A stretch of DNA of 60,333 nt from Minisyncoccota bacterium (GCA_035385585.1 DAOOKJ010000003.1:1-60333), one strand, 5' to 3'; positions 11,138 to 36,030 are shown, numbered from the stretch's first letter. Translations and numbers: made by a program. Notes: generated by a model from the letters alone, not told the origin.

Positions 11138-11155
11138 CCTAAAAAATTTTTAGGA

Positions 11156-11557
11156 CTAAAAATATTCTTCTAAAAATCTCTTTAACTCCTCATTGGTTCT
11201 CTCATTTGAAGAAATCGTTTTTTCCATCCGTTCTTTTAACCATTGTTCAAACTTATTTTTGTCATCAAATTCTTCTTTATTTATAACCCAATGTTCATCG
11301 TGCATTGTTGAACCTAAAATCTGAATAATTATTTTATTTTTATCATCTTTATATAATCTGTAATCTTGTCCATATATCAAATTTAATATTTCTTCATATG
11401 TCTTCCATTTATCTCCATTTTCAGGTGAGGGGGGCGGTGGTGGTGGTGCTTCGGTTGTAAGCTCTGGCAAGTTTTTTGTTGGATTTTGTTCCATCTCTTT
11501 TGCTTCCTTCTCTTTTTCTTTTTTTTGAGGAGGCATTGACTCGAATTCAATAGGCAT
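11156..11557 (-). CDS. Hypothetical protein with poly-proline tract
   Basis: 133-aa ORF with a PPPPPPSP linker followed by a small globular part. No motif recognised. Confidence 0.55.
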   Translation of the reverse strand: MPIEFESMPPQKKEKEKEAKEMEQNPTKNLPELTTEAPPPPPPSPENGDKWKTYEEILNLIYGQDYRLYKDDKNKIIIQILGSTMHDEHWVINKEEFDDKNKFEQWLKERMEKTISSNERTNEELKRFLEEYF

Positions 11558-11664
11558 AATATCATTTTGAAGTTAAAGTTTAAATTCGACCTTTATAATT
11601 GTATAATTATTATTATTTATTTTCAATTAAAAATTTCTCTACTAAGGTCTTCATTTCTTCAGGA

Positions 11665-11838
11665 CTAATTAGAAATAATTGTTCCATTTGGCCATCTATA
11701 TGATGGATTGTAAGCAATAATCACATCAGCATAATTATACCCTATTTCCATAGATTTTTTGCAGGAACTTTCTATAAATACAGCTTTGCCGTTTAAAATT
11801 GTTTTTATTTTAGAGTTCTTTCTGGCTTTTTCTTTCAC
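11665..11838 (-). pseudogene. Decayed fragment paralogous to the middle of the 400-aa ORF at 15010-16212
   Basis: Translates to ARKNSKIKTILNGKAVFIESSCKKSMEIGYNYADVIIAYNPSYRWPNGTI against ARKNSKIELFADNTIAFIEGTHKRAMEIGYENADIIVAYNPKFDWGNGII in the 400-aa protein, about half identical. It has no proper start and begins 1 nt after the stop of the 672-aa gene. Confidence 0.6.
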
Positions 11839-11839
11839 G

Positions 11840-13858
11840 TTATTTTGTAATTTTAATTTTTTCTCGAAATAAGGGATATTGATTTTTGAAATTTTCTATC
11901 TCCTGCATTTTTTTATAAGCATCATTTTTAGGGATAAAAATATTAATGTCGTCTACTTCTTCCAAATTTATGGCTCCTTTAATTACTGCTACGATATAAG
12001 GTTCTATCTGTGGATTATCATTCAGTGTAGTAATTGGTTCTAATACTAATCCTGGTAATGCTCTTTTAATATTAAGTATAGATTTTATTATAGAAATATG
12101 TTCTAATGAAAATGAAAAGTAATCCTTGTTATGACCTTCAAAATAAAAAAAGATGCGATCTTTAAGATTTATCGGTTTTATTAAGAAGAAAACGTCGCCA
12201 TACCCTCCCCCTGTACCCCCTCTTTTAAACTCGTTGAAATTTACTGTTTGTCGCCCCCCGATAAAAGTTCCATAAACTAATGGAGTGCCACGTTCAAAAC
12301 CAAAGTCCATTTCTTGAGGATGTATGGCATTTCCCTTAAGTTCTAATTCACCCCAATATAGAGGATCCTTTTCCCTCATCTTTATTAGCTCTAGAGTCGG
12401 ATAAATATATCCTGTGTCTAAAATCTTTTCTAAACTCTTAAAATCTCGATTAGTACAAATATAATTCTGTTTGTTAACTAACTCTTGTTGCTGTTTTAGC
12501 AGTTGAAAAACTAATTTCTTATCAAACTTTTTTGTATATCTTTCTTTATTTTTATAAAATATTTTTTGACTCTCTTGATCAGCTTCGATTTGATCTTGTG
12601 CACTAATGGCTTTTTCTCGTACTTTATCTCCCATTGTATTAGAAATTAAATAAAACAAACTATGATATAAACCATTATCAGATACGTTACGTAATAACTG
12701 TTCTTGTCCAATGTAAGGTATTGGTTTGTCTAAAATTTTTGTTATACCTTCATCTAATAAAATCGATATATTCTCTTTTGGGGCACGACTTACTTCTTCC
12801 ATTTTTATTAAGTCGGGTAAGTGTGACACTGCAAAATCTTTTAATTTCACTGATAGATTATGTATTTGTATTATATTAAGATTTTTTTTCTTGTTATCAG
12901 ACGTTATATTCATCATTTGCTCGAGATTAATATCTTGCTCCTTGAAATCATCTAATGCCTTATGAATATGGTAGATAACCCACTCTAAATCTTTTTTCAA
13001 TGTTCCAAAACCATTATCAGTATAGTAATCGATATCTATATCTATTAAATTTCCTTTCTGAATTTGTTCCTCTAAATTTTGTCTTTGATTTTCTCGTTCC
13101 TTTTGTTTGTTTAATAGTAACGAAAAGTACTCTAATTTTCTTTTGTCTCCATTTTGCCCATACTGTTTTTGTAAAATTTGACTCGCACCTTCTAAAGTAT
13201 TAATTAATTTATTCGCTACTTCGGAAATGGTTTCTTCTTTATAAGAAGATACAATATCTTCTAATGCTTTATCTAAAGCAACAGAATCTCTTTTGTCTAT
13301 TATATTCATTAATTCGGTAATCTCTGATTTAATCAATTGCATTTCTTTACTTAATCGTGTTTCTGCAAATAACTTATTTTTTTGTTTAACCTTAATACCG
13401 CCATAGATAGAGGATACAGTAAAAAATTCCGCTAATTGTGTTCTTGTATTTTTGAAAGACTCAATATTTATTCTCTTAATATTAGAATCTATTTTTGAAT
13501 CGTTTTCTATATTTTGTTTATAATATTCTTCGTCCCTCAATGTTACTTTAAAGTATGGGAATACTTCTGCCTCTAAATAATCCATAAGCTCTTTTTTCTC
13601 AAGGGAATCTCCGTACAAACCTTTGTTTATTAACCAATAGGAATTGAACATTTCACTTAGATATTCTTTGGAATAATTTGCATTTGCTCCTCGCTTATCT
13701 GGAGTTTTTTGAACTTTATCTTCTGGTTTATAAGTATCCTCATTTAACTTATTTAAAACATTAGGAGATTGATTTTCTATCTGTTGATCAGGATTATCCA
13801 GCGAACCGCTTCCGCTAAATACCTCTGGTGAATAATTAATTTGATTGAAATTAGGCAT
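11840..13858 (-). CDS. Large hypothetical protein (672 aa from the internal ATG)
   Basis: Long uninterrupted ORF. I prefer the start MPNFNQINYSPE at 13858 because it matches the N-terminus of the 400-aa ORF. The track start at 13909 would overlap the dehydratase remnant. Confidence 0.65.
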   Translation of the reverse strand: MPNFNQINYSPEVFSGSGSLDNPDQQIENQSPNVLNKLNEDTYKPEDKVQKTPDKRGANANYSKEYLSEMFNSYWLINKGLYGDSLEKKELMDYLEAEVFPYFKVTLRDEEYYKQNIENDSKIDSNIKRINIESFKNTRTQLAEFFTVSSIYGGIKVKQKNKLFAETRLSKEMQLIKSEITELMNIIDKRDSVALDKALEDIVSSYKEETISEVANKLINTLEGASQILQKQYGQNGDKRKLEYFSLLLNKQKERENQRQNLEEQIQKGNLIDIDIDYYTDNGFGTLKKDLEWVIYHIHKALDDFKEQDINLEQMMNITSDNKKKNLNIIQIHNLSVKLKDFAVSHLPDLIKMEEVSRAPKENISILLDEGITKILDKPIPYIGQEQLLRNVSDNGLYHSLFYLISNTMGDKVREKAISAQDQIEADQESQKIFYKNKERYTKKFDKKLVFQLLKQQQELVNKQNYICTNRDFKSLEKILDTGYIYPTLELIKMREKDPLYWGELELKGNAIHPQEMDFGFERGTPLVYGTFIGGRQTVNFNEFKRGGTGGGYGDVFFLIKPINLKDRIFFYFEGHNKDYFSFSLEHISIIKSILNIKRALPGLVLEPITTLNDNPQIEPYIVAVIKGAINLEEVDDINIFIPKNDAYKKMQEIENFKNQYPLFREKIKITK

Positions 13859-13862
13859 AATT

Positions 13863-14228
13863 TTATATTTCTGAGCAATTAGTGGCACCCATAATAGCAT
13901 CATCGCCATAATTAATTTTTATTCGTTCCCTATTAGTTATAATATCTCTTCTACCTTTAGCACAGATAGTAATTCCAATTGTTTTAGAAAGATTTTTAAC
14001 AAATTCAACTTTATCTAAAAAATTCTCTGGCATTTGCAAATTGTAATAATCACTCATTGATTTTAATTCACCGCTATTTGGTGTTACTATTACTTTTGCC
14101 TTTTTTAATTTATCAATATATTTTGTTTCTAAAATAATACCTATTGCATTAGCATCTATATAGAAAAACCAGGTTATTCTCTCTTTCGCTGTTCTTATAT
14201 TTATTGACTTTTTCTGCTCTAAATTGAA
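13863..14228 (-). pseudogene. NAD(P)HX dehydratase (YjeF C-terminal/NnrD-like) internal fragment
   Basis: The open frame reads ...FYIDANAIGIIL...KAKVIVTPNSGELKSM...ITICAKGRRDIITN...INYGDDAIMGATNCSEI*. This matches the vIDADAL / LTPHxGE / vlKG..tvI / tGnpgmatgGsGDvL order of the family, but about 80 N-terminal and about 70 C-terminal residues are missing, and the only Met gives 64 aa. Confidence 0.6.
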
Positions 14229-14251
14229 TTACATAAATTCTATTCTAAAAT

Positions 14252-14965
14252 TTAGCTATTTTTATTGTTTGGATTCTTAACATTTTTTTCTTTTTCTCTT
14301 TTATCATCCTCCTTAAAACCGATTTCCTCCCCGGGCTCCTCTGGTTCCAATTCCCCTAAAATTTCCTCTTCTAAAGTTTGGCTACTACCCTCCTTTTTAT
14401 TTACAACATCTATTGTAATTTCATCTAGTGGAACAGCCGCCTTCAAGGGGCCGTGTCTATACCGCACAGATTCTCTTATGAATTCTTTAATATATATATA
14501 ATATTGAGAAAACCGCCAACTTTTATCCTCTCTTGCCTTATAACCACTTTTTCCCAACATTTGGGTTAAGACATGTTCTATTAAGTCTTCCTCATCAAAA
14601 GGATAAAGATATTTATTAATTTCACCTTTTAAAACCCCCATCTGTCCAAAATGAGAAATCATAGCTTGTTTAATTTCTTCTTTAAGCAATTCATAATTTT
14701 CTTCAAACCACTTATCATCTCTTTTTTCTATCCGAGTATGGTAATTAAGATAAAGCCACCCCCTCTTTTTTGCTCTTAAAGCAGTATCCTTTGAAACACC
14801 AAACTTTTTCCTAATCTCTTGAGTAGTTAGTTGAGGGTCAATAAGAATCTTTTTTCTTTCTATTGATTCGCCTCTTTTTTGGTTAGAACCATTTTCTTCA
14901 TTTTCTTCATCTTCTTTTTTTTTATCTTTCATTTGACTCTGATAAATTTTGTCTAAATTTTCCAT
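14252..14965 (-). CDS. Hypothetical protein with N-terminal helix-turn-helix, acidic tail
   Basis: LTTQEIRKKFGVSKDTALRAKKRGW looks like a sigma-region-4/terminase-small-subunit style HTH. The rest is unassigned. Confidence 0.55.
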   Translation of the reverse strand: MENLDKIYQSQMKDKKKEDEENEENGSNQKRGESIERKKILIDPQLTTQEIRKKFGVSKDTALRAKKRGWLYLNYHTRIEKRDDKWFEENYELLKEEIKQAMISHFGQMGVLKGEINKYLYPFDEEDLIEHVLTQMLGKSGYKAREDKSWRFSQYYIYIKEFIRESVRYRHGPLKAAVPLDEITIDVVNKKEGSSQTLEEEILGELEPEEPGEEIGFKEDDKREKEKNVKNPNNKNS

Positions 14966-15009
14966 GAATTTAAATGTTTTATATTTATATTACGCCCTTA
15001 AAAATTAAA

Positions 15010-16212
15010 TTAGCCTTCTTTAAAACGTAATTCTATCTCCTCTCTCAATTCTCTCAACTGCTTCAATCTTTCTTCCTTACTTTTTATCAAATTTTTCAAA
15101 TTATTCATTTTTTCCTCTAAATCTCCTAAAGTACTATCATCACGCAACCCAAAAATTTTTTTAATTTCTTCAACCGCTGTCCCCCTCCTGTAATTACTAT
15201 CTTTTATAGAAAGAGTTATTTCATTCTCTAAACGCCTTAAACTCACTATTTTATCTTCTAGCATTACTTCTTCCATATAATTTTTAATTTGTTCCGGAGT
15301 AAGCAAGGGGTCTTTTCCAATCGGTGAACCAATAATATTCTGCTGACCGCCCCACTTTGGGTCAATTTTTTTTAATCTCTCTAATAATTTTTTAATATCA
15401 AAATCTACATTATTATCTCTTCTTGCAATGGTAAACTTTGGCGTAATAATTCCGTTTCCCCAATCAAACTTAGGATTATAAGCAACAATTATATCGGCAT
15501 TTTCATATCCTATCTCCATTGCTCTCTTATGCGTTCCTTCTATAAAAGCAATTGTATTGTCAGCGAATAATTCTATTTTAGAATTTTTTCTTGCTTCTTC
15601 TAAACTTTCCTTATCTTTTAAATATAATTCTTCAATTTCTTTGTCTTCCACTTCATTTGTCAAAAGTTTTTTAACAAACAAAAGATTCTCTTCTATTGGT
15701 TTCCTTTCTTCAAAAACTTTATAATAAGCGGCTCGCAATTTCTGATTTGCCTCAGTCCAATCTTTATCTTCAATTTTTAATAATTCTTGTCCTTGTTCTT
15801 TAAAAACTTTTGGTCCTAATCTATCTAAAATTCCTATTGCCTTGGCTAAATTTTCATCAAAATTTTTATTTTCTTTTCTTAGCATTAAAACCGCCATTGC
15901 GCCTAAAGAATCCAAATCCTGACGAACAGTTGCCATTTTCCCTTCTGAAACTTTAGATAAATCAAATTCTAAAGCCTGTTCAATTGCTGAAGGAGTTTCG
16001 GGAGTATCATTATCTTTATGATGGTCAAGATTTATTCCTTCAAAACCAGGAGTGGTAATTTCTATCCCTATTTCAATTCCTTCGTAATTAGGTTCTTTCG
16101 GGTTTATAATAGTGACTTCGGATTTAATTTTTTCTAACTCAATTTTATCTTTGTTATCCGGGCCACCACCTCCTTCTTCAGGTGAATAAAAAGTTTGATT
16201 TAAATTAAGCAT
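15010..16212 (-). CDS. Hypothetical protein (400 aa)
   Basis: Uninterrupted ORF. Its N-terminus MLNLNQTFYSPE is shared with the 672-aa ORF. It contains NLDHH and DLDSLGAMAVL strings reminiscent of DHH-family motifs but in non-canonical order, so it is not assigned. Confidence 0.65.
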   Translation of the reverse strand: MLNLNQTFYSPEEGGGGPDNKDKIELEKIKSEVTIINPKEPNYEGIEIGIEITTPGFEGINLDHHKDNDTPETPSAIEQALEFDLSKVSEGKMATVRQDLDSLGAMAVLMLRKENKNFDENLAKAIGILDRLGPKVFKEQGQELLKIEDKDWTEANQKLRAAYYKVFEERKPIEENLLFVKKLLTNEVEDKEIEELYLKDKESLEEARKNSKIELFADNTIAFIEGTHKRAMEIGYENADIIVAYNPKFDWGNGIITPKFTIARRDNNVDFDIKKLLERLKKIDPKWGGQQNIIGSPIGKDPLLTPEQIKNYMEEVMLEDKIVSLRRLENEITLSIKDSNYRRGTAVEEIKKIFGLRDDSTLGDLEEKMNNLKNLIKSKEERLKQLRELREEIELRFKEG

Positions 16213-16284
16213 ATTTTTTATTAATTTATATTTACCTCTACATTATATCACTCATATCTAGAATTATCAAAGAATTATGATAAA

Positions 16285-16470
16285 CCTCTGAAGGGCAGAC
16301 TAATCGGATAAAATATTTAAAAAAGTAGTGAAGGAGAGAGTTTTTTATCCTCCATAGCTTTAAGCGTAGGGGGATTCCTTCGTTCCTGAAAATCAGGGGA
16401 AGGGGCACTACTCTTTTTATATCCTTTTTGTCTGCCCTTCAGAGGTAACGACTGAAATTTAAGTCGCTAC
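16285..16470 (-). promoter_or_regulatory. Structured 5' leader domain upstream of the 400-aa ORF
   Basis: A perfect 16-bp closing helix, cctctgaagggcagac (16285-16300) with gtctgcccttcagagg (16430-16445), encloses 129 nt with nested helices (gtagtg/cactac, cctga-aaa-tcagg, ggata/tatcc). A further hairpin follows at 16445-16470. Confidence 0.45.
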
Positions 16471-16484
16471 TTAATTACTGATGT

Positions 16485-16515
16485 ATTATAGCACATTACT
16501 TCTCTCCTCCTTCAA
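16485..16515 (-). promoter_or_regulatory. Putative extended -10 promoter for the 400-aa ORF
   Basis: Minus strand reads GTAATGTGCTATAAT, the same 15-mer as promoter P1 at 22583-22597. The -35 is weak (TTGAAG at 19-nt spacing). Confidence 0.4.
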
Positions 16516-16600
16516 ACCTAAGATAAAAAATCTTAAACTTGAAGGAAGAAAGGAGGTTTTAACCCAATTATGGAAACCTCCCAAAAACTCCATTTAAACC
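16499..16600 (-). repeat. Hairpin module copy 1 (long hairpin H1 plus GGAGGTTT/AAACCTCC extension)
   Basis: Arms cttctctcctccttcaa and ttgaaggaagaaaggagg, followed by ttttaacccaattatggaaacctcc. This copy lacks the second, shorter hairpin H2 that accompanies H1 in copies 2-5; the promoter above replaces it. Confidence 0.7.
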
Positions 16601-16623
16601 CATTTACTCGTTCGATTTTATAT

Positions 16624-16800
16624 TTATAGAACTACCTGTGTAGCGATGAGAACAACGAAAATCCACAAGAAAAACTTAAGGGTGAACTTTACAAATTCAT
16701 CCTCATCGTCCACTAGCTCATTTATCGTAAGGTGAAGAAAGCCACCAAGATAGGAGAGCACTAAACAAAACAAAATTTTTAAAATGATCTCCTTCACCAT
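16624..16800 (-). CDS. 58-aa two-TM mini-protein (below the ORF-track cutoff)
   Basis: AAGGAGG, then 5 nt, then ATG. Translates to MVKEIILKILFCLVLSYLGGFLHLTINELVDDEDEFVKFTLKFFLWIFVVLIATQVVL. Paralogous to the 50-aa ORF at 17939-18091. Confidence 0.6.
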   Translation of the reverse strand: MVKEIILKILFCLVLSYLGGFLHLTINELVDDEDEFVKFTLKFFLWIFVVLIATQVVL

Positions 16801-16805
16801 CTTTA

Positions 16806-17044
16806 CCTCCTTTTTCTCCTTTTGTTCCCTGCTATTACTGGTCAGGTATCCAGGAGAAACTGGATCTCAGATCCTCTAAGATCCAGTATTAAAAAGACAA
16901 TGATTTTTCTTCTTAATGCTGAATCTTAGAACTCATTCCAAGAAGTTTTTCTCTTCCTTTTCAAGGTGCTAAGAGGATTTCTCCTCCTTCAAATCTAAGA
17001 CTCATTGTCTTAAACTTGAAGAAAGAGAGGAGGTTTTAACCCAA
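16806..17044 (-). repeat. 239-bp direct repeat, copy A (leader of the 58-aa ORF; contains module copy 2)
   Basis: Base-for-base identical to 17669-17907 by manual comparison. Begins at the SD (cctcc) and ends at ttttaacccaa. Confidence 0.9.
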
Positions 17045-17102
17045 CTTTGCTACCAAGCACCTCCTCAAAAAAATTAAACTTGATAGCAAAACAATATAGC
17101 TA

Positions 17103-17663
17103 CTAGCTAATTATTATATCTATAATTCTCCCCTCTGGAGGGGGAGAAAAGAACCCTAATATTCTTCTTTTTACCACTATATTCTTCCCTTCTTTGAGGG
17201 CTCTATAAGCCCTCAATTCATTGTGGCACCATCCACATAATTTTAAAAAGGATTCGAGATCATTCTCTGTTGTCCCTATAAACTTTAGAGACACTATTTC
17301 TCCCTCGAAATTCGCTTTGACTATTTTTTTCAAGTTAACTGAATCTAAAAAACTCTTTAAGTAATCTGTCATACTGGAAGTGTTAACTGCATCTACTCTT
17401 CTTCTAATATCTTCAAACAGGTCTCCTAAATTTTTATAAATATCAATTCCTGTTTGAGATAGGATGAACTCTCTAACTTTTTCATATTCTTCCCATGTGC
17501 CTGTCATTAATCCTTTCACCCAATCACTTTTCAATGTAAAAGTGATTGGGGATACTTGTGGGATACGCAAATAGTATCCTGTTCCTGCGTTCCATCCTTT
17601 ACTGCCGAAGCTTTCATACCCGGCCTCGGCATCTATTAATCCAAATAATTTTATTTGGACCAT
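17103..17663 (-). CDS. Hypothetical protein (186 aa)
   Basis: AAGGAGG, then 5 nt, then ATG. Uninterrupted ORF, G+C-richer than host genes, no motif recognised. Confidence 0.65.
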   Translation of the reverse strand: MVQIKLFGLIDAEAGYESFGSKGWNAGTGYYLRIPQVSPITFTLKSDWVKGLMTGTWEEYEKVREFILSQTGIDIYKNLGDLFEDIRRRVDAVNTSSMTDYLKSFLDSVNLKKIVKANFEGEIVSLKFIGTTENDLESFLKLCGWCHNELRAYRALKEGKNIVVKRRILGFFSPPPEGRIIDIIIS

Positions 17664-17668
17664 CTCTT

Positions 17669-17907
17669 CCTCCTTTTTCTCCTTTTGTTCCCTGCTATTA
17701 CTGGTCAGGTATCCAGGAGAAACTGGATCTCAGATCCTCTAAGATCCAGTATTAAAAAGACAATGATTTTTCTTCTTAATGCTGAATCTTAGAACTCATT
17801 CCAAGAAGTTTTTCTCTTCCTTTTCAAGGTGCTAAGAGGATTTCTCCTCCTTCAAATCTAAGACTCATTGTCTTAAACTTGAAGAAAGAGAGGAGGTTTT
17901 AACCCAA
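17669..17907 (-). repeat. 239-bp direct repeat, copy B (leader of the 186-aa ORF; contains module copy 3)
   Basis: Identical to 16806-17044. Confidence 0.9.
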
Positions 17908-17938
17908 TTATGGAGACCTCCTAAAACTCCATAACCCA

Positions 17939-18091
17939 TTATAAGGCACTCATCAGGAGAAGAATTATAAGACACCAAGAAAATACTTGGAGCCTCGTCT
18001 TTCTCCTTTTATCCTCCACTTCCATAGAGATGAGGAGATGGAGGATCAACCCGTAACCAATAATGAGGCCACAAATAACAACGTATCTCAA
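17939..18091 (-). CDS. 50-aa two-TM mini-protein (TTG start, below the ORF-track cutoff)
   Basis: AAGGAGA, then 7 nt, then TTG. Translates to (M)RYVVICGLIIGYGLILHLLISMEVEDKRRKTRLQVFSWCLIILLLMSAL. It shares a C..G..LHL.I...V.D...F.W pattern with the 58-aa ORF. Confidence 0.5.
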   Translation of the reverse strand: MRYVVICGLIIGYGLILHLLISMEVEDKRRKTRLQVFSWCLIILLLMSAL

Positions 18092-18163
18092 TTTTTATTC
18101 TCCTTTGTCCCTGGCCTTAAAGGTTTAAGGGAGTTATCTCCCACCAGAGGGGTAGCTCAATAC

Positions 18164-18218
18164 ATCTTGCCACCATAAAAATTCTTAAAGATTTTATGAA
18201 TCTTTATGGTGGCAAGAT
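18164..18218 (-). repeat. Conserved hairpin H3, copy a
   Basis: atcttgccaccataaa pairs perfectly with tttatggtggcaagat. Repeated at 19018-19074. Confidence 0.7.
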
Positions 18219-18240
18219 ACAAAATAAGACATAGATAAAT

Positions 18241-18374
18241 TTCTCTTCCTTTTCAAGGTACTAAGAGGATTTCTCCTCCTTCAAACCTAATATCGGAATA
18301 ATAAGCTTGAAGGAAGAGAGGAGGTTTTAATTTTTTAAGCGGAGACCTCCTACTAATTTATAATGCAACTCCGC
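18241..18374 (-). repeat. Hairpin module copy 4 (H2 plus H1 plus gcggag/ctccgc hairpin)
   Basis: ttctcttccttttcaaggtactaagagga, then tttctcctccttcaa...ttgaaggaagagaggagg, then gcggagacctcc...ctccgc. Confidence 0.7.
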
Positions 18375-18387
18375 AAAATTCTACAAG

Positions 18388-18939
18388 TTAGTCTAGTAAG
18401 TCATTTTCCTCCCCTGTCAGAGCAAGAACACCATCTGAACTAATTTTATAAATGTATTCACTTGGTGCCCCGTATAATCGTCCCCCAACAGTCATTTTTA
18501 TCGTACTACCAAATCTACATTTTAATATCCACTGTCCACCACTACCCATTGCCCCTGCTGCTCCTTGAGCAATAACACCACTTAAAATCTCCTTTACTCC
18601 TTCTGATATTGTTATATCATTACTGCCTCGAAATCCAATATGTCCTCTAAGAACAATAATACATTCATTCTCTGTTTTATTCTCGTGAGCAATCAATTTT
18701 GGACGACCAGAATGAGTTTCACCTATCTCTCCATCAAATATTATAACATTTCCTTTTTCATCTAGTTCGTTCATCTCTTCCGGGGTCAAACCACTTACGG
18801 GTAAAACCCCGAGACGTCTTCCTCTTCCCTCTTCTCCTACCAAAATTGCGGGTATTGTGATTTCTTTATTGTGAAATATAAACAATTGCACAATACCTCC
18901 CATAAATACTGTTGAACCTTTAATTGTAAAAATCTTCAT
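18388..18939 (-). CDS. Hypothetical protein (183 aa, Gly-rich AQGAAGAMGSGGQ segment)
   Basis: AAGGAGG, then 5 nt, then ATG. Uninterrupted ORF, no motif recognised. Confidence 0.65.
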   Translation of the reverse strand: MKIFTIKGSTVFMGGIVQLFIFHNKEITIPAILVGEEGRGRRLGVLPVSGLTPEEMNELDEKGNVIIFDGEIGETHSGRPKLIAHENKTENECIIVLRGHIGFRGSNDITISEGVKEILSGVIAQGAAGAMGSGGQWILKCRFGSTIKMTVGGRLYGAPSEYIYKISSDGVLALTGEENDLLD

Positions 18940-19017
18940 TATATCCTCCTTTTACCCACCTGTATCTTTCGATATTCAGGCGTTCTAGTTGGATCCTAGA
19001 ACTTTTGGGTGTGGTAG

Positions 19018-19074
19018 CATCTTGCCACCATAAAAACTCCTAAAGATTTTATGAATCTTTATGGTAGCAAGATG
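19018..19074 (-). repeat. Conserved hairpin H3, copy b
   Basis: catcttgccaccataaa pairs with tttatggtagcaagatg. The single change relative to copy a is a C.A mismatch in plus sense but a G.U wobble in minus-sense RNA. Confidence 0.7.
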
Positions 19075-19093
19075 TAATTAGACAGTTCTGCAC

Positions 19094-19232
19094 TTCTCTT
19101 CCTTTTCAAGGTACTAAGAGGATTTCTCCTCCTTCAAGCTTAATATCCAACATATTAAACTTGAAGGAAGAGAGGAGGTTTTAACCCAACTTATAATTTA
19201 TATGGAGACCTCCCAAAACTCCACCTAAACCC
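19094..19232 (-). repeat. Hairpin module copy 5 (H2 plus H1 plus extension)
   Basis: ttctcttccttttcaaggtactaagagga, then tttctcctccttcaag...cttgaaggaagagaggagg, then ttttaaccc...atggagacctcccaaaactccac. Confidence 0.7.
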
Positions 19233-19442
19233 CTCGCTCTTTTCACAGTAGGTTAGCAAAACCTACCAACCTGGCTTTTGGTCTTTTATGGCCAGGTTAC
19301 TTATCGTCTTTCTCAGCCCTCTATTTTATCAAGGTGAGAAATAGCGATAGTCCCTCTTTGCTTCGGCTTTGGAGATGGTTCTCGCGAACCAGCCGATTCC
19401 CGCGGTCTGACGAGGGTTCCGCGGGAGATTACTTATAAAGTC

Positions 19443-19676
19443 CTACAACTCGACTTTATAAGTAATCTTTGCCTCTTTTCTCTCCAACACCCACCAGGGG
19501 TGGTGGAGAGCAATGAGGTCCTTCGCCTCTTCTTCCTCCCAGAGAATCTCCTCTGAGAGATTCCCTACGGAAGAAAGAGAAGCCATCGAGAAAACTACCC
19601 AACCGTAGTTCCTCGATAGAACCTCAAATTCCTTCTCCCCCATCCTAAGGAGAAGAAATTTTTTCTTTCCTTCCAT
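19443..19676 (-). CDS. Hypothetical protein (77 aa from the internal ATG)
   Basis: The track ORF starts at TTG 19700, but AAGGAGG sits 8 nt upstream of the ATG at 19676 (MEGKKKFLLL...). No motif recognised. Confidence 0.5.
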   Translation of the reverse strand: MEGKKKFLLLRMGEKEFEVLSRNYGWVVFSMASLSSVGNLSEEILWEEEEAKDLIALHHPWWVLERKEAKITYKVEL

Positions 19677-19968
19677 TTTTCTTTCCTCCTTCTGACTCAA
19701 AATTTCCCTGAGGGGCGAGTCACTCCTTGTTGATGGTTCAAACGGCTAAATTTAGCCTCCCACCGCACTAGCATTTTACTAGCCTCAGGTAGTTAGTTTT
19801 TTCTTTTTTGTCTTATTAAAAGCTCAAGACAAAAAAGAAAAATTTAGCTTTCCAGGGCTGCTAACCACAACCCCAACCAAGCTGGCTGCCTCATCAGTTT
19901 CAAGTAGCCAACCTGGAAAACCATTAGAAATGGTTTCGGCTTTGCTTGGTTGAAATAAAAAGATAAAA

Positions 19969-20000
19969 AAAGAGGGCTATACAAATATTTGTAGCCCTCT
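19969..20000 (-). terminator. Intrinsic terminator downstream of the 416-aa ORF
   Basis: Minus sense reads AAGAGGGCUAC-AAAUAUUUGUA-UAGCCCUCUU followed by UUUUUUAUCUUUUU. Confidence 0.6.
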
Positions 20001-20055
20001 TTTTTATTAATTTTTCTTATCTTATTTTCCTTATCTTAAGTTTTTTACTCTTTCT

Positions 20056-20156
20056 AACAAGTAGAGAGAGAATTAAGAGGGCTACTCAGAAATTCTCTCT
20101 CCACTTGTTAAAATCCTACTTTCAAAGTAAGCGATAAGCAAAATTGTAGCCCTCTT
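20056..20156 (-). promoter_or_regulatory. Set of mutually exclusive helices upstream of that terminator (attenuator-like)
   Basis: aacaagtagagagagaatt (20056-74) pairs with aattctctctccacttgtt (20091-109). This pair is interleaved with aagagggctac (20075-85) and gtagccctctt (20146-56). The latter 11-mers are the same as the two terminator arms. Confidence 0.3.
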
Positions 20157-20354
20157 TGCCTGCCTAAATTTTTGCTTCTCAAAAATTTAGGCAGGTAGAT
20201 TTTTCAATTTTCTCCTAATTTGAATCTACTATTTTCTAAATAATAAACTCAAAGGGCAAACTCTTTCTAAATTCGCCATATCTTGGTGAACTTGGATAGA
20301 GAAGGGAAGAGGAAGAAAGCCTCTTCCCTTACAACCCTTTATAACCCACTGCCA

Positions 20355-21605
20355 TTAGTCCCTTTCCTCCGTAGGGGGTCTATAATGTGTACGACCCCCT
20401 ACAGATCTTATTCCGAGTCCTACTCTACCCAGATTCACCCTTACGGTAGGGTGATCTGGGTGTTTAATTTCAATTATTTTTACATCATCGGGGAAAATAG
20501 CTATATAGCGTTGATGCCAACGACTATATAGCCACTGAACAGGAGAAGGAGAAAAAGTACAAGAAGAAGGATTAGGGGGGTCCTCTCCCACATAGCTGGG
20601 AGGGGGGATCTTTTTGACTTCATAATAATACTTCCCCTCCCCTATTCCATAATCATTGTCCACGGGGTAAAAATAGAGATCCCCTTGACGGGTTTCTCCT
20701 CCCCATTCATTTAACTTAGGATCTTCTCTCACTAAACTAAAAGAGAGAGAAGAATCTTCTCCTATTTTGATCTCCCACGCGAATTTTTTTCTTAGTGTGG
20801 TCCAGATGACTTCAACTCCCCAGAAACTCTTCTTATTATCTCCTTCATCATATAAAGGATTAACAACAAGACTTCCTTTTCCAGAAACAGTCCCAGCAAG
20901 GATGTAATAGGCTGATTTCCTCACACTATTATCATTATCATAGTAACAAAAGGGGAACCAACGAGGATCACATGCTTCCCTATAGACACCGACGGTGATT
21001 TTTCCCACCGGGGTGTCTAAAGTAGTTTGAAGACATTGGGAGCTTCTAAAAGCCCTTGCCCTCCAAAATAACGGCTGCATTTCTTGGGGAAAGAGGGAGG
21101 CATAACCCTTTTTATCTAGGGTCTCAATTAATTTTTGAAACCCCGATTCTTCTTCTATACCTCCTCTAGAAACATGTTGGGAATTAAAATACCCTAAGGC
21201 ATTTTTAGCTTCGCGGTAAACACTAATCCCAATTTCTAAATCCAATTCGGATTCTTCAACCACTTCTCTTAGCCCCTCAATGTAACAATAAATTGCTTTA
21301 TTGAGGGCTATTTGTTCCTCAGAATCCGAAACTAAGTAAGACCTTTTTATAATTCCAACCTCCACTAAGTAGGTCGGATTAGGCACGGAGGCCAATGCCT
21401 TACGTAATTCTTCACTCTTTAAAAAAGGAGTTATTATCCTTTTTTCTTCAATAAATTCTATCTTTTCTCCTTCTTGGGGAATATAATTTTCCCCATAACA
21501 CTTTATGTCTATAAACTTACCTTTATCCACACCCAACTCCCTACGAAGCTGGGCAATGCTTTTGCCGACGAAATCGCCGGCAACAAATATAATTATCTTC
21601 TCCAT
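20355..21605 (-). CDS. Hypothetical protein (416 aa from ATG 21605)
   Basis: AAGGAGG, then 5 nt, then ATG; the track GTG start at 21611 abuts the SD. Long uninterrupted ORF, roughly 45-50% G+C by spot counts, no motif recognised. Confidence 0.7.
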   Translation of the reverse strand: MEKIIIFVAGDFVGKSIAQLRRELGVDKGKFIDIKCYGENYIPQEGEKIEFIEEKRIITPFLKSEELRKALASVPNPTYLVEVGIIKRSYLVSDSEEQIALNKAIYCYIEGLREVVEESELDLEIGISVYREAKNALGYFNSQHVSRGGIEEESGFQKLIETLDKKGYASLFPQEMQPLFWRARAFRSSQCLQTTLDTPVGKITVGVYREACDPRWFPFCYYDNDNSVRKSAYYILAGTVSGKGSLVVNPLYDEGDNKKSFWGVEVIWTTLRKKFAWEIKIGEDSSLSFSLVREDPKLNEWGGETRQGDLYFYPVDNDYGIGEGKYYYEVKKIPPPSYVGEDPPNPSSCTFSPSPVQWLYSRWHQRYIAIFPDDVKIIEIKHPDHPTVRVNLGRVGLGIRSVGGRTHYRPPTEERD

Positions 21606-21611
21606 AGCCAC

Positions 21612-22495
21612 CTCCTTGCCCCTACCTGCCTCTTTTATGAGGTCAGGGCTTATGGGGTGCTAAATCCTTTCAGATTCGGCTTTAAAAAGATAAAGAATTA
21701 TCTCCTTAAAGCCGAATCTGAGAATTCATTTCAAAGAATTTCAAGGTATTTCTCTAAATCAAACAATACCTTAGTTTGATTTAGATATTACTAAGATTCT
21801 TGGGGATTTTATATTTTAAAGGTGCGAGAGGGTAAGGGCACGGATTGGATTGTGCCCTTACCATAAGTTGTGTCGAGTAAGCAAGGTCCCGCTTGCTTAC
21901 CCGCCTTGCTTTTTCAATTGTCTGAAAAAGCAAGGCGGACAAGCAAAGAAAAGTGGGTTAGGCTTTTCTTCTTGTCCCTCCTAATCGGATTTTTAATCCT
22001 AATTAGGGGTGATAGGGGTTAAAGAATTAAAAGGAGCAAAACTCAACAATTAATTCATTTAACGAAATTGAAATTAAACCCTCGTCTTGGTTTAATCCCA
22101 ATTATTTTCCCCTATCAATTTAAGACGAGAAAACTAAAAAATATTTATTTTTCAATTCACTCTCTCCTTGAATACTCTCTCCTTAAAGAAAGTGAAAGGT
22201 AAATATTTTTTAGTTTTTATTTCAAGGTGCTATATTTTGCTTATTTTGATAAAACGCTATCTCCCCAAGCTGAGGAGAGAATTAAGGATTAATTTAAATA
22301 ATTTAAATCCCTAATTTTCTCATTACCTTGGAATAAAAAAGCGGCTAAAGTTTATTTTCTAAGAAGAGAAATCGGGCTCTAATATCAAACTTTTAACCGC
22401 TTTTGCTTAATTTCCGGTATTAAGCTCACCGACTCTCTCCTTAAGTTATTTAATTATAGGGTGCTTTTTTTCTTTATTCTGCCTATTTTTTAAGT
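21612..22495 (-). other. ORF-free, hairpin-dense ~0.9-kb leader or candidate large structured RNA
   Basis: No minus-strand ORF of 60 aa or more. At least 12 helices of 9-18 bp, mostly perfect, for example 21671-85/21706-20, 21831-41/21852-62, 21901-14/21925-38, 22130-47/22200-17, 22337-53/22388-405. Lies downstream of two consensus promoters. Confidence 0.4.
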
Positions 22496-22501
22496 ATCTC
22501 A

Positions 22502-22530
22502 ACTATAGCACACTTTTAATAAAATGTCAA
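22502..22530 (-). promoter_or_regulatory. Sigma70-type promoter P2
   Basis: Minus strand reads TTGACA, then 17 nt ending in TGTGC, then TATAGT. Confidence 0.6.
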
Positions 22531-22582
22531 ATAGAAATTCCTCTTTAAGTTAGTTTTAACTTCTCACTTTATTTTGTCTTTA

Positions 22583-22611
22583 ATTATAGCACATTACAGC
22601 AAAAATGTCAA
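22583..22611 (-). promoter_or_regulatory. Sigma70-type promoter P1
   Basis: Minus strand reads TTGACA, then 17 nt ending in TGTGC, then TATAAT. Perfect hexamers with an extended -10. Confidence 0.65.
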
Positions 22612-22646
22612 GAAAAATTAAAAAAGGGGCAACTCCTTCCCCTTTT
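22612..22646 (-). terminator. Intrinsic terminator of the mraZ-ftsI operon
   Basis: Minus sense reads AAAAGGGG-AAGGAGUUG-CCCCUUUU followed by UUAAUUUUU, 33 nt after the ftsI stop. Confidence 0.7.
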
Positions 22647-22678
22647 CCTGTTTTCATTTTATTTTCAAATTCAATTTT

Positions 22679-24451
22679 TTACTCTATCTTCTCATCTGGG
22701 GGAATGTTGTAATAATTAATTAAAAATTGCTCTACTTCTTTAAAGGCTAAAGTCACGGTATGGCTGGCAGCGCTATTTGGGTCTATAGGCTTGTCCATTT
22801 TCACTAATATTAGGAAGCGAGGGTCTGAAGCCGGAAAAAATCCAACAAAAGTATGAATCTGATCATCTGAATATCCTCCTTTTCCAAATAAAGGAATCTG
22901 AGCTGTGCCAGTTTTTCCCCCTAAACTGTAACCTTTTATTTTGGCATTTCCTCCAAAACCATTTTCAATTACGGAAACAAGCATTGTGGTTAATGTCTGG
23001 GCAGTTTCTTTAGAAATTACCTGTTTTTGCTCTGGTTGGTCAATGGAATGATACACGCCATTTGAGTCTTCTATTGCCTCGACAATATATGGATTTACCA
23101 CTTTCCCTTCGTTTAAAAAAGCAGAATAAGCCCTTAATAAACCAATTGGAGTAACCGTAATTCCCTCGCCATAAGAGGCGGTTGCCAAATGGCTGGGGTT
23201 GGCTTTTGGATATTCCAAATTAGATAAATCGCCAGTAATTTCATTTGGCAGGTCAATGCCGGTTTTTTCATCTAAACCGAACTTTTTAAAATATTCTCTT
23301 AAATTTTGCATTCCAACTCTCTGGCCCACAAAAATCGCGCCGGTGTTAATAGAACGCTCTAAAACTTTTGTCATCGTCACATTTTTTCCATAAACTTCAT
23401 TCCGATAATTATTAATTCTATAACCAGAAATTTCAAAATACCCTTTATCATCATAAGTGGTCTCCGGCGTCACTTTTTTCAAGTCTATTCCTGCTGCCAT
23501 TGTTAAAGGTTTAATTACTGAACCTGGTTCATACATTTCTTCAACCGCGTAATTTTTATAAACTGAATAATCCTTGACTTCATTAAACTTATTTAAATTG
23601 AAAGTTGGCCAATTTGCCAAAGCTAAAATTCTGCCGGATTTTGCTTCCATTACAATGATTGAGCCTTTTACTGCCCCTCGGCCTTTGATTAAATTTTCTA
23701 AAGCCTCTTCGGTCTTAAACTGAACATTTTTATCAATAGTAATAATAAGATTTGCTCCTTCAACTGGGGCTTTATTTGAAGAAAAAAGAGAATAAATTAA
23801 TCTACCCAAAGCATCTCTAACGCCGGAATATTCACCAGGCTGACCAGATAAAATATCTTCATAATAAGATTCAAGTCCGTATCTGCCTTTTATTTTCCCA
23901 TCTTCTCCCTGAGAAACAAAGCCAATTGTTTGACTCAATAGACTATCAAATGGCCAGTAGCGAAATCTTTCTTCCTTAAAATAAATTCCCTTTATTGCCA
24001 TTTCTTTTATAATAGTCATTAGTTCTTCATCTTCAATCCTATTTACTAATGGTTCATAAGGATCGCCCTCTTTATTTAATCTATTAAAAATTTCTTCCTT
24101 CTTCAGGGACACATATGGAGCCAAAGCCTCACTTGTTTTCTGAGGGTCTTCTATTTCTTTTGGAACCGCATAAAGAGACCAATATTTTTTATTAATCGCC
24201 ACCGCGATCTTTTCCTTATCTTTGTCCTGGGTATAAATTAAACCCCGCTGGGGTAAAAGGGTGGCTTTGGCAGAATGAGTAACTTCCGCCAAAGCCCGAT
24301 ACTCTTCATGTTTTAAAATTTGGAGGTCAAATAAACGCACAGTTAAAATCGCAAAAAGGACAATAAAACCTAAATAAATAAAAAAAACTCTTCCAGAAGG
24401 ATTGATTTCTTCATTTGGAAGAATAATTTTTCGTTTATAAGACCGACGCAT
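22679..24451 (-). CDS. ftsI: Penicillin-binding protein, class B transpeptidase (FtsI/PBP2-like)
   Basis: N-terminal TM segment, SVIKP (SxxK), SIN (SxN) and KTGTA (KTG) motifs. Position follows ftsL. Confidence 0.9.
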   Translation of the reverse strand: MRRSYKRKIILPNEEINPSGRVFFIYLGFIVLFAILTVRLFDLQILKHEEYRALAEVTHSAKATLLPQRGLIYTQDKDKEKIAVAINKKYWSLYAVPKEIEDPQKTSEALAPYVSLKKEEIFNRLNKEGDPYEPLVNRIEDEELMTIIKEMAIKGIYFKEERFRYWPFDSLLSQTIGFVSQGEDGKIKGRYGLESYYEDILSGQPGEYSGVRDALGRLIYSLFSSNKAPVEGANLIITIDKNVQFKTEEALENLIKGRGAVKGSIIVMEAKSGRILALANWPTFNLNKFNEVKDYSVYKNYAVEEMYEPGSVIKPLTMAAGIDLKKVTPETTYDDKGYFEISGYRINNYRNEVYGKNVTMTKVLERSINTGAIFVGQRVGMQNLREYFKKFGLDEKTGIDLPNEITGDLSNLEYPKANPSHLATASYGEGITVTPIGLLRAYSAFLNEGKVVNPYIVEAIEDSNGVYHSIDQPEQKQVISKETAQTLTTMLVSVIENGFGGNAKIKGYSLGGKTGTAQIPLFGKGGYSDDQIHTFVGFFPASDPRFLILVKMDKPIDPNSAASHTVTLAFKEVEQFLINYYNIPPDEKIE

Positions 24452-26938: not shown

Positions 26939-27340
26939 TTATTTTATTTCAACGCTTGCTCCGGCTTCTTCTAATTTCATTTTAATCTCTTCTGCTTCGG
27001 CTAAAGAGATATTTTCTTTAACCGGCTTTGGCGCGGCGTCAACCAAATCTTTTGATTCTTTAAGGCCTAAACCTAACAAATCCTTTACCACTTTAATAAC
27101 TTGTAATTTTGATTGTCCGCTATCTTTTAAAATCACGGAAACTGTTTCTTTCTGAGCCGCTTCCCCGGCATCAGATTGAGACGCATTAGCGGCGCCAGTA
27201 TTAGATATTACCGGCATGGCGGAAACGCCAAATTTCTCTTCCAAGGCCTTTACTAAATCATTTAATTCTAAAACTGAAAGTTCTTCTATTTCTTTAATGA
27301 TTTTTTCCAATTTTTCTGATAGTTTTTTTTCTTCTGCCAT
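26939..27340 (-). CDS. rplL: 50S ribosomal protein L7/L12
   Basis: Ala-rich hinge and a C-terminal LKESKDLVD...LEEAGASVEIK. Confidence 0.95.
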   Translation of the reverse strand: MAEEKKLSEKLEKIIKEIEELSVLELNDLVKALEEKFGVSAMPVISNTGAANASQSDAGEAAQKETVSVILKDSGQSKLQVIKVVKDLLGLGLKESKDLVDAAPKPVKENISLAEAEEIKMKLEEAGASVEIK

Positions 27341-27428
27341 ATTTTTAGTTTAAAATTATTTTAAGGTATCTGAAACAAGTTCAGAGATCCCTCGCTTTGC
27401 TCGGGATGACAACTTAGTTGTCATTTTT

Positions 27429-27959
27429 TTATTGTTTTCCTACTGATTGTTTTCCTATTGCATTGATTACCATCGCTAATCTAAAAAGATTGCTTTTCAA
27501 AGAATAAGCTAAACGATAAAAGGGTGAATAAACTGCTCCTGCTAACCGACCATATAAAACATTTTTAGCAGGGATATTTGCCAACTCTTCTACCACGCTG
27601 GCTGTCAAAAACTCATTGTTTAACAAACCTCCTATAATTTTGAAATTTTCATTCTGTTTGGAAAATTCTTTTACAATCTTGGCTGGGGCAAGGGGGTCTT
27701 CAAAAGCAAAATTAACCAATACTGACCCTTCTAATTTTTCTCGCCAATCCTCCTTTAATCCCTTTCTTTTCAAAGCCAAATCTAAAAGAGTTTTCTTAAT
27801 TACCTTCGCCTTACCGCCAACTTCTTTTAATTTCGCTTTGTAATTGTTTAACTGGGAAGTTTTCACTCCATTAATTGATGAGAAATAAAGAGCAGTGGCT
27901 TCGCCTAAATCCTCTTCCAGTTCTTTTATAATCTCCCGTTTTTTATCTTTTGAAATCAT
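27429..27959 (-). CDS. rplJ: 50S ribosomal protein L10
   Basis: 176 aa immediately upstream of rplL, with L10-like N-terminal domain features. Confidence 0.9.
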   Translation of the reverse strand: MISKDKKREIIKELEEDLGEATALYFSSINGVKTSQLNNYKAKLKEVGGKAKVIKKTLLDLALKRKGLKEDWREKLEGSVLVNFAFEDPLAPAKIVKEFSKQNENFKIIGGLLNNEFLTASVVEELANIPAKNVLYGRLAGAVYSPFYRLAYSLKSNLFRLAMVINAIGKQSVGKQ

Positions 27960-28173: not shown

Positions 28174-28181
28174 CAACTCAG

Positions 28182-35545: not shown

Positions 35546-35551
35546 ATGAAA

Positions 35552-36018: not shown

Positions 36019-36030
36019 ATTATTTTATCA

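Follow-up and report, generated by a model that had tools for sequence, protein, structure and literature searches.

We report here that a block of DNA at positions 16,213 to 22,611 of a 60,333-nucleotide stretch from a Minisyncoccota bacterium (GCA_035385585.1 DAOOKJ010000003.1:1-60333; this whole stretch is "the window" below) is probably a horizontally acquired island of ribozyme-associated cassettes whose genes come from a phage gene pool. The host is a Candidatus Paceibacterota bacterium of the Candidate Phyla Radiation (CPR), its own genes carry no Shine-Dalgarno (SD) sequence, and the island sits at a variable ftsI/tRNA-Glu site. Coordinates are window positions throughout, all island features lie on the minus strand, and fetched loci and contigs are referred to by L numbers.

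SD usage sets the block apart from its surroundings. A sequence-only reading of this DNA had pointed to six open reading frames (ORFs) with a strong SD 5-8 nt before the start, and had held that host genes and the neighbouring ORFans lack one. Scoring SDs by the longest stretch between -20 and -4 that matches AAGGAGGTGA, and inspecting the upstream 30 nt of 64 ORFs of the window as well as the minus strand from 16000 to 22800, we reproduced every spacing and motif, with matches of 6-9 nt in 6/6 island ORFs. Among 53 host ORFs, 46 scored 0, seven scored 4-5 nt and none reached 6, while the AT-rich ORFans at 11.1-16.2 kb scored 0 in 4/4 cases, such that the second claim held as well (0/53 and 0/4 at 6 nt or more). 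The six island ORFs, in order of transcription, are as follows.

20355-21605, minus strand: 416-aa ORF, AAGGAGG 5 nt upstream of ATG; small family, no assigned function
19443-19676, minus strand: 77-aa ORF, SD AAGGAGG with an 8-nt spacer
18388-18939, minus strand: 183-aa ORF, AAGGAGG 5 nt upstream of ATG; conserved family, no assigned function, often near hammerheads
17939-18091, minus strand: 50-aa ORF, AAGGAGA 7 nt upstream of a TTG start; two hydrophobic stretches read from the translation
17103-17663, minus strand: 186-aa ORF, AAGGAGG 5 nt upstream of ATG; ORFan whose sole database match is itself
16624-16800, minus strand: 58-aa ORF, AAGGAGG 5 nt upstream of ATG; two hydrophobic stretches

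Packing and composition differ from the host as well. Coding sequence makes up 0.45 of the island, against 0.84 of the ORFan part and 0.89-0.93 of the host, which bears out the earlier estimate that about half of the block is non-coding where DNA elsewhere is tightly packed; that half is non-coding because a hammerhead, tandem promoters and modular RNA repeats, all absent from the sequence-only reading, fill the space. For G+C content (GC), the spot values first quoted were correct (0.47, 0.42 and 0.58 for the 60-nt lines of 19261-19440, and 0.48 for 20581-20640), but the contrast drawn from them was overstated, given line means of 0.374 in the island vs 0.329 in the host and host lines that span 0.20-0.47 (5th-95th percentile). 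The island's 1-kb GC maximum is 0.425, and its GC at third codon positions (GC3) is 0.40 vs 0.26 in the host. Tetranucleotide usage, whose deviation had been proposed as a check, gave a stronger signal than GC, with 3-kb windows within 16-22 kb lying at z=7.0-8.7 from the host profile; the ORFan part deviates weakly (z ~2.8). Both GGAGG (4.35/kb in the island vs 0.6-1.0/kb in the host) and CCTCC (1.55/kb vs ~0.4/kb) are in surplus, and the surplus GGAGG and CCUCC strings are parts of the pseudoknot modules described below.

Evaluating the same site in a close relative revealed it to be empty. A search with the flanking FtsI/PBP protein identified a Ca. Paceibacterota metagenome-assembled genome (MAG), L020, as the closest public genome (93% protein identity); the DNA on both sides of the gap aligns with the window at 86-89% (blastn), and in L020 the tRNA-Glu follows ftsI by ~180 nt, with no counterpart of the following stretch.

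10966-22675, minus strand: region missing from L020, comprising SD-less ORFans (10966-16212) and the SD-rich sub-island

The site is thus occupied in the window genome and empty in L020, and the 16.2-22.6 kb part deviates from the host in k-mer usage, GC3 and SD usage, so that the 16.2-kb border is a compositional boundary inside a larger, 11.7-kb variable region, which directly adjoins tRNA-Glu. The junctions are real in independent assemblies of different samples. The exact 416-aa protein occurs on 22 contigs (ENA, JGI and Logan assemblies); in the 10 contigs that we compared, identity to the window is 99.88-100% along as much as 21 kb; and both junctions are spanned by at least three of them (L001, L002 and L003, which run from beyond 29.8 kb to 10355). 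Many assemblies end near 17.77 kb, within a 254-nt repeat whose copies are 98% identical.

Just two island ORFs, those of 416 and 183 aa, have relatives inside phage genomes. The 416-aa family is very small: it has 7 close relatives, and a set of 1.84 billion proteins contains 32 representatives. A survey of 185,579 GTDB species (one genome each) brought up no relative, and the AlphaFold model (pLDDT 77) had no PDB match at E ≤ 0.001. A 48.6-kb IMG/VR viral contig carries one relative together with RecT, a PD-(D/E)XK nuclease and DUF2201, and further ones lie in other islands and on GC-rich MAG contigs. Two of the latter loci, L074 (GCA_038889835.1, ~60% GC) and L049/L050 (62% GC), carry their 416-family genes amid dense small ORFs, many with SD-like purine tracts, and the L074 gene adjoins dnaN; such lineages may be donors of the GC-rich cassettes found in AT-rich hosts. 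The 183-aa family is larger (341 database relatives). Members were found on 14 IMG/VR contigs and in the Pseudanabaena phages PA-SR01 and Pam2, and further ones belong to phage-like contigs that also encode DNA polymerase A, ThyX, RNR, SSB and MoxR; two phages that carry relatives have a strong SD on nearly every gene. Both proteins retain their family-invariant residues, and the island ORFs are intact. For the 77-aa ORF there was no homologue in the fetched loci and no family-library match (the protein database was not queried with it), and relatives of the 50- and 58-aa ORFs were absent among the fetched loci; the hydrophobic stretches of the 50-aa product suggest a small membrane protein. 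In several phage copies of the 183-aa gene (L030, L034, L027 and L029) we observed, ahead of the start, a GC-rich hairpin ACCGCC...GGCGG, an A-rich tract and then an SD; this hairpin, missing in the window, may, judging from its sequence, be a cis-regulatory RNA specific to the family.

Taken with the empty site in L020 and the k-mer deviation, these phage relatives uphold the part of the sequence-only reading that proposed acquisition from an SD-using replicon such as a phage. The word "recent" in that proposal fell away, because three ORFs, those of 183, 186 and 416 aa, have by now a GC3 (0.23-0.35) close to the host's (0.26).

All six ORFs are co-oriented downstream of two tandem promoters, P1 and P2, and the DNA between them is filled by predicted RNA structure. 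The promoters and the elements outside the repeated modules are listed here, from the promoters onward.

22583-22611, minus strand: promoter P1, TTGACA-17-TATAAT with TG extension, 12/12 consensus positions
22502-22530, minus strand: promoter P2, 81 nt downstream of P1, TTGACA-17-TATAGT with TG extension, 11/12
21606-22501, minus strand: structured, hairpin-rich leader of ~900 nt
21937-21977, minus strand: leader hairpin with loop CCUAACCCAC (loop 21955-21964), read from sequence
21611-21659, minus strand: hairpin preceding the SD of the 416-aa ORF (CCCC..CCUGACCUC/GAGGCAGG..GGGG, then AAGGAGG)
20245-20350, minus strand: predicted three-way junction after the 416-aa ORF (stem AAAGGG/CCCUUU, hairpin GGGAAGAGG/CCUCUUCCC, and a pyrimidine/purine hairpin)
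19966-20199, minus strand: three long hairpins (20199-20155, 20 bp; 20113-20052, 23-nt arms; 20005-19966)
19875-19951, minus strand: type II hammerhead candidate (Rfam RF02276 plus a check of the core), predicted cleavage 19919/19918
19225-19442, minus strand: GC-rich (42-58%) non-coding stretch with several stable hairpins
16284-16446, minus strand: 163-nt stem-loop at the low-coordinate island edge, 30-nt arms, dG -69.8 kcal/mol

The hammerhead candidate occupies the spacer that separates the 416-aa ORF from the 77-aa ORF, and the next SD follows ~200 nt further on. The Rfam Hammerhead_II model matched 19941-19880 on the minus strand with 33.9 bits (E=4.8e-4 in a 6.8-kb search and 5e-5 in a 701-nt search), and the core is complete, with CUGAUGA (C3-A9), GAA (G12-A14), an A15.1-U16.1 pair and U as H17. 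Stem III has 6 bp and stem II consists of GGC/GCC plus an 8-bp extension (AACCAAGC/GCUUGGUU); stems I and III are loop-closed and stem II is open, and every pair that adjoins the core is standard. A pseudoknot can form between loop I (UGGCU) and AGCCA beside stem II, and this pairing covaries with that of two above-threshold type II hammerheads, L039 (55.2 bits) and L041 (51.4 bits), found on viral contigs with 183-aa homologues (variants UGGCC:GGCCA, UGACC:GGUCA and UUGGCC:GGCCAA). Members of the 183-aa family lie ~0.1-2 kb from hammerheads of type I, II or III in L026, L031, L039, L041 and the window. The hammerheads of L026 and L047 are of type III; by reading, they have a complete canonical core and stems and stand between cassettes; Rfam at E ≤ 0.01 did not report them.

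A repeat of ~100-130 nt, D1, stands behind the 77-, 183-, 50-, 186- and 58-aa ORFs. Each module begins with a 5-6-bp hairpin (stem P1), followed by a pseudoknot partner, a 22-bp pyrimidine/purine hairpin and a small tail hairpin; the purine loop closed by stem P1, AGGAGGU, pairs with ACCUCCU 8-29 nt downstream, which makes an H-type pseudoknot.

19094-19223, minus strand: module copy 1, stem P1 UGGAG/CUCCA, loop GGGAGGU pairing with ACCUCCU
18241-18373, minus strand: module copy 2, stem P1 CGGAG/CUCCG
17812-17931, minus strand: module copy 3, within the 254-nt repeat D2 (17912-17659)
16949-17089, minus strand: module copy 4, stem P1 UUGCUA/UAGCAA, of differing sequence with the pairing kept; it starts the second D2 (17049-16796)
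16496-16592, minus strand: module copy 5, without the tail
18163-18218 and 19018-19073, minus strand: 26-bp hairpin D4, between a post-ORF module and the next SD

The spacer from a module to the following ORF is filled either by a D4 hairpin or by the rest of D2 (254 nt, two copies, 98% identical), which also provides the hairpin and SD of the next ORF, and the last part of each spacer is a stable hairpin with the SD behind it. Folding the five window copies together (RNAalifold) recovered the AGGAGGU:ACCUCCU helix and the long hairpin, with 3 compensatory pairs near the hairpin tip, and single-sequence fold z-scores of the modules were -4.2 to -5.6. Across 11 modules from the window, L026 and L047, stem P1 (5-6 bp) and the pseudoknot (5-8 bp) are free of mismatches despite differing sequences, the stem variants including UGGAG/CUCCA, CGGAG/CUUCG, CGAAGU/ACUUCG and UUGCUA/UAGCAA, and the pseudoknot variants AGGAGGU:ACCUCCU, AAGAGGU:ACCUCUU, GAAAGAUU:AAUCUUUU, GAGGAGA:UCUCCUC and AGGAGAUU:AAUCUCCU; when a loop is matched with a partner from another locus, as many as 4 positions fail to pair. 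Since SD-like sequence is missing from some of these pseudoknots, we regard the motif as structural rather than as an SD/anti-SD switch. The module hairpins contain 1-5 G.U pairs and the sense strand is the more stable one in 11/13 copies (four loci), which argues for a role in RNA rather than in double-stranded DNA.

These folds also bear on the other explanation that the sequence-only reading had offered for the SDs, namely expression gated by RNA structure. In local folds the SDs are mostly unpaired and lie just 3' of a stable hairpin, and pseudoknots elsewhere cannot pair with SDs, so that this explanation was not sustained. Sequestration of the SDs by the ACCUCCU repeats was likewise ruled out, the SDs being predicted unpaired and the sister-island pseudoknots carrying non-SD sequences. 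The pseudoknot-hairpin RNA, which stands at inter-cassette positions like those filled by hammerheads in sister islands, could be a new processing signal or even a new self-cleaving motif, and the duplication of the 254-nt module around different ORFs suggests shuffling by recombination between modules.

The leader has a repertoire of its own. It is rich in 24-bp hairpins (21946-21893 and 21721-21670), and AAGGAGAGAG occurs in it three times (22443, 22180 and 22165), one copy being followed by a mini-ORF of 14 codons with a GTG start (22429-22385) that overlaps a terminator-like hairpin (22402-22332). The same motif is also found downstream of the L026 promoters; on sequence grounds the copies could be SD-like decoys, a protein-binding site or part of a leader-peptide attenuator. 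The loop of the leader hairpin at 21937-21977 is complementary to AGUGGGUUA, right behind the stop codon of the 416-aa ORF (20350-20342), and L014 has an equivalent pair (CCUAACCC / GGGUUAGG, at ~1880 and ~3128); the complementarity could reflect long-range RNA pairing around the 416-aa ORF or a DNA inverted repeat. GGGUUA recurs in the linker of 4/5 window pseudoknot modules. The motif UAGCACCUUGAAA / UUAGCACC recurs in the leader (22232), before the SD of the 416-aa ORF (21655) and in two D1 tails (17830 and 16967), the remaining two tails reading UAGUACC.

The same scaffold, with partly different ORFs from a common gene pool, recurs in at least three other SD-less, AT-rich genomes.

L014: flanks gatB and recR, ~32% GC, without SD; four tandem consensus promoters; a 63% GC, SD-led 416-family gene with the three-way-junction element
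L026: flanks MreC, PBP2 and IS1595, without SD; two tandem promoters; an SD-led 183-family gene preceded, at 60 nt, by a canonical type III hammerhead; a further four SD-led ORFs of 51-58% GC; modules of pseudoknot and hairpin in four copies
L046/L047: flanks of 38-44% GC, without SD; two tandem promoters (12/12 and 11/12); then, in order, a 136-aa ORF, a pseudoknot module, a type III hammerhead that shares ~90% identity with its L026 counterpart, a gene of the 416-aa family and another module

In these sister islands the SD-led ORFs have 50-63% GC within SD-less flanks of 30-44% GC, and the SDs are likewise strong. The ORF families common to islands are those of 416, 183 and 128/136 aa, the last represented by a 128-aa ORF in L026 and the 136-aa ORF in L047 (51% identical). 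A leader hairpin with a CCUAACCC-type loop is common to L014, L026 and L047, the three-way-junction element also stands behind the homologous genes in L014 and L018, and L018 contains an element similar to the pre-SD hairpin at 21611-21659. Blastn of the island against the related loci gave only three matches of 18-27 nt (one in the 416-aa ORF and two to a host-relative locus), and the likeness between islands is one of motif and structure. Two further candidates were discarded here: an archaeal origin, raised by TrmB and MJ1673 labels near a homologue, was dropped in view of the bacterial sigma-70 promoters and the SD-less bacterial-type flanks of that locus (the MJ1673 label was not reproduced with a local Pfam copy), and an L074 neighbour gene considered for the 136-aa family proved not similar.

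The sequences show the anatomy of the block, its foreign origin and phage relatives, the covariation of its RNA modules and the hammerhead core; promoter use, processing by ribozyme and hairpins, SD function and any role of the proteins we infer, within the following model. The two tandem consensus sigma-70 promoters would drive strong transcription by the host polymerase through the ~900-nt leader and the six ORFs, yielding a transcript punctuated by RNA elements (pseudoknot plus 22-bp hairpin, 20-26-bp hairpins, type II hammerhead) that would divide it into stable mRNAs the length of a gene. Cleavage by the ribozyme would produce a 5'-OH end, and the long hairpins might be sites for a double-strand RNase or barriers to 3' exonucleases. 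At each ORF, a hairpin and an exposed AAGGAGG 5-8 nt from the start would recruit the host 30S subunit by SD/anti-SD pairing. That six strong SDs persist while GC3 has drifted host-like suggests that the SDs are kept by selection.

Several observations weigh against this reading, and they concern the ribozyme, transcription, translation and mobility alike. The hammerhead score lies below Rfam's curated gathering score of 37 bits, and stem I pairs at 6/7 positions with a C.A mismatch at 1.3-2.3, away from the core; the element at 19951-19875 is probably a hammerhead ribozyme, with self-cleavage predicted from its sequence. A single long transcript is an assumption, because the terminator-like hairpin 20005-19966, with its T-run, sits between the promoters and the downstream cassettes. 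The SD step would fail if the host, whose 16S rRNA gene lies outside the window, has no CCUCCU anti-SD, a motif detected in 48% of Parcubacteria, where the anti-SD-less lineages overlap the uL1-lacking group (PMC9297842). Viral sequence sets, proposed as a place to look for the block, gave a mixed outcome: relatives of the 416- and 183-aa proteins are on IMG/VR contigs, but two pattern scans of IMG/VR did not recover the regulatory scaffold, neither the D1 repeat nor the L026/L047 hammerhead sequence being matched. A loose pseudoknot pattern gave 22 matches there, resembling chance hairpins. The three other island hosts are classed by their SD-less, AT-rich flanks rather than by taxonomy, and the contigs carrying the window island all represent one strain, so that mobility is without population evidence. 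No integrase, transposase or phage structural gene lies in or beside the block; Pfam, PHROGs, NCBIfam and PADLOC returned nothing significant for the island ORFs and five flanking ORFs; and the precomputed Pfam annotation of the 10-kb flanks holds neither integrase nor transposase. An att-type repeat, a duplicated tRNA segment or a flanking direct repeat was not found either. Integrase-mediated insertion at tRNA-Glu was rejected, the tRNA segment not being duplicated and border repeats being missing, and a prophage or phage satellite was rejected for the lack of integrase, att site and replication, structural or packaging genes and of any PHROG or Pfam match in the island ORFs. A supposed GIY-YIG remnant next to the tRNA was dropped for want of Pfam support.

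An alternative that we consider unlikely is that the block is a relic: a fragment, now in decay, of some phage or other element whose donor uses SDs. Its SDs would then be carried over without use, and its ORFs would be poorly translated or silent, the host's anti-SD being absent or idle. The absence of SDs from all host genes, the restriction of the anti-SD motif to 48% of Parcubacteria (PMC9297842), a rplJ-rplL pair without preceding rplK-rplA (compatible with the uL1-lacking group) and the loss of mobility genes all agree with such decay. What a relic does not readily explain is upkeep: the six SDs still match at least 6 nt at near-optimal spacing (5-8 nt) when the GC3 of three ORFs has drifted to 0.23-0.35, SD retention is repeated in three other SD-less genomes, the ORFs are intact with family-invariant residues kept in the 416- and 183-aa proteins, and promoter P1 is a perfect consensus.

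Distinctly unlikely, in our assessment, is a native origin, in which an ancestral, lineage-specific operon with special translational control was lost from the sister genome. All fetched contigs of the strain share one layout, the GC3 of some ORFs is host-like, and an SD-blind lineage with one SD gene provides a precedent (PMC13000453, PMC7797042). Set against this are the strong k-mer deviation, the occurrence of relatives in phages and at unrelated sites of other genomes (gatB/recR, PBP2/aminotransferase), the lack of the 416-aa family from the 185,579 species surveyed at one genome each, and sister-island genes of 57-63% GC within flanks of 30-44% GC.

We hold it very improbable that the block is integron-like, that is, an array of promoterless cassettes with attC-like palindromes, lacking an integrase and built by recombination of folded single-stranded DNA. 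Integron cassette arrays, and clusters of attC sites that reportedly occur without an integrase, are among the known systems that come closest to it. The resemblance lies in co-oriented ORFan cassettes that each end in an imperfect palindromic repeat of 100-130 nt, with a tip that varies while its pairing is kept, and in a weak Pfam match (E=0.039, failing the cut-off) that links the 416-aa product with an integron cassette protein. Unlike integron arrays, however, the island has no IntI or tyrosine recombinase within 10 kb on either side, and its repeats, read by eye, lack the R'' RYYYAAC ... R' GTTRRRY layout, with no AAC...GTT frame in that order. Their pairing is specific to the RNA strand, where it relies on G.U pairs in the sense orientation; a pseudoknot forms part of the module, behind which come another 150 nt of hairpin and SD leader; and the hammerhead in one inter-cassette spacer argues for a role at the RNA level.

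A chimeric assembly of a CPR contig and a foreign fragment, to which the compositional break and the 254-nt repeats that break many assemblies near 17.77 kb might have pointed, has practically no chance of being right in view of the independent, 99.88-100% identical ENA, JGI and Logan contigs, at least three of which span both junctions.

Returning to the cassette island as the reading we favour, several known systems resemble parts of it. In the early region of phage T7, tandem, strong host-type promoters (A1-A3) give a long transcript that RNase III cuts at intercistronic hairpins, with a strong SD for each gene; the islands are alike in having two to four tandem consensus sigma-70 promoters, a strong SD per cistron and intercistronic hairpins of 20-26 bp, a size that by analogy would suit RNase III, and unlike in showing no sequence or protein homology to T7 and in being, for the window block, chromosomal and apparently outside any phage genome. 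PeSLs (promoter-early stem-loops) are reportedly mobile regulatory cassettes that flank ORFans in hyperplastic regions of T4-type phages. As with PeSLs, repeated modules of stem-loops and expression signals bracket unrelated small ORFs in the island, whereas its internal modules carry a hairpin and SD in place of a promoter, and neither excised circles nor shuffling between strains is evidenced. Synthetic insulators of the RiboJ type are said to combine a hammerhead, a hairpin and an exposed ribosome-binding site; L026 and L047 show the order hammerhead, hairpin(s), exposed SD and ORF, and window SDs follow a stable hairpin and are predicted unpaired, though the island is a natural element and the window ribozyme lies ~200 nt from the next SD.

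Two further comparisons come from the literature, the first being the nearest case described so far. Hammerheads flank genes in prophage-like regions, for which processing of polycistronic transcripts has been proposed (Perreault et al. 2011, PMC3088659; PMC6765202), and bacterial hammerhead and twister ribozymes share gene neighbourhoods in a manner that is unexplained (PMC6765202). The window ribozyme, too, stands between co-oriented small genes with phage relatives, where we propose a processing role. It differs in being a single sub-threshold hammerhead, in that the other spacers hold a pseudoknot-hairpin that is not in Rfam, in the lack of an integrase or prophage body, and in having SD-less CPR-type genomes as hosts. 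In SD-blind Bacteroidia, rpsU is the sole SD-bearing gene, an autoregulated native ribosomal protein gene (PMC7797042, PMC13000453); the island SDs are similarly confined to few genes of an otherwise SD-less genome, but those genes are foreign.

Measured against the searched literature and Rfam, the combination of hammerhead/phage-gene clustering with tandem promoters appears new, as do the modular pseudoknot-hairpin element and the leader motif, and recurrence in SD-less genomes with strict SD retention appears new to the searched literature. If our reading is true, the islands would offer a natural test of whether Parcubacteria-type ribosomes use SD/anti-SD pairing; SDs kept on foreign genes in four genomes would predict that the pairing works, possibly with a translational edge for foreign mRNAs. 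It would also give the question of ribozyme-phage-gene clustering a defined context (the 183-, 416- and 128/136-aa families and three hammerhead topologies), and would supply two motifs that Rfam lacks, a pseudoknot-hairpin RNA that covaries and a leader hairpin. The island is one of the rare concrete leads towards DNA of mobile or phage origin in CPR bacteria. A broader generalisation, in which such islands form an undescribed class of selfish or accessory expression elements specialised on SD-less CPR bacteria by way of maximal host-type promoters, a private SD/anti-SD channel, orthogonal in that the host's mRNAs never engage the anti-SD, and a new RNA class that delimits cassettes, seems to us rather unlikely as it stands.

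Some observations concern neighbouring features. The 163-nt stem-loop at the island edge is preceded by an extended -10 element TGCTATAAT (~16495) and gave no match in an Rfam search; from its predicted fold it may be a candidate non-coding RNA and a separate small RNA gene. Besides the hammerhead, Rfam at E ≤ 5 returned hairpin-like miRNA-model matches only, with no twister, pistol, hatchet, riboswitch or OLE/ROOL-type RNA. The ORFans at 10966-16212 encode 133, 57, 689, 64, 237 and 400 aa, have host-like composition and show no family matches, and the 400-aa ORFan gene has its own near-consensus promoter (16270-16242). Further along the window, rplJ-rplL (26939-28254) has a recognisable L10 leader, with tRNA-Thr and a divergent mnmA upstream rather than rplK-rplA; in this one window, the missing rplK-rplA may bear on the overlap between uL1-lacking and anti-SD-less lineages. 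A class A RNase P RNA at 35551-36023 on the plus strand measures 473 nt against a 367-position model (111.5 bits vs a gathering score of 100), which suggests insertions of the kind often reported in CPR structural RNAs.

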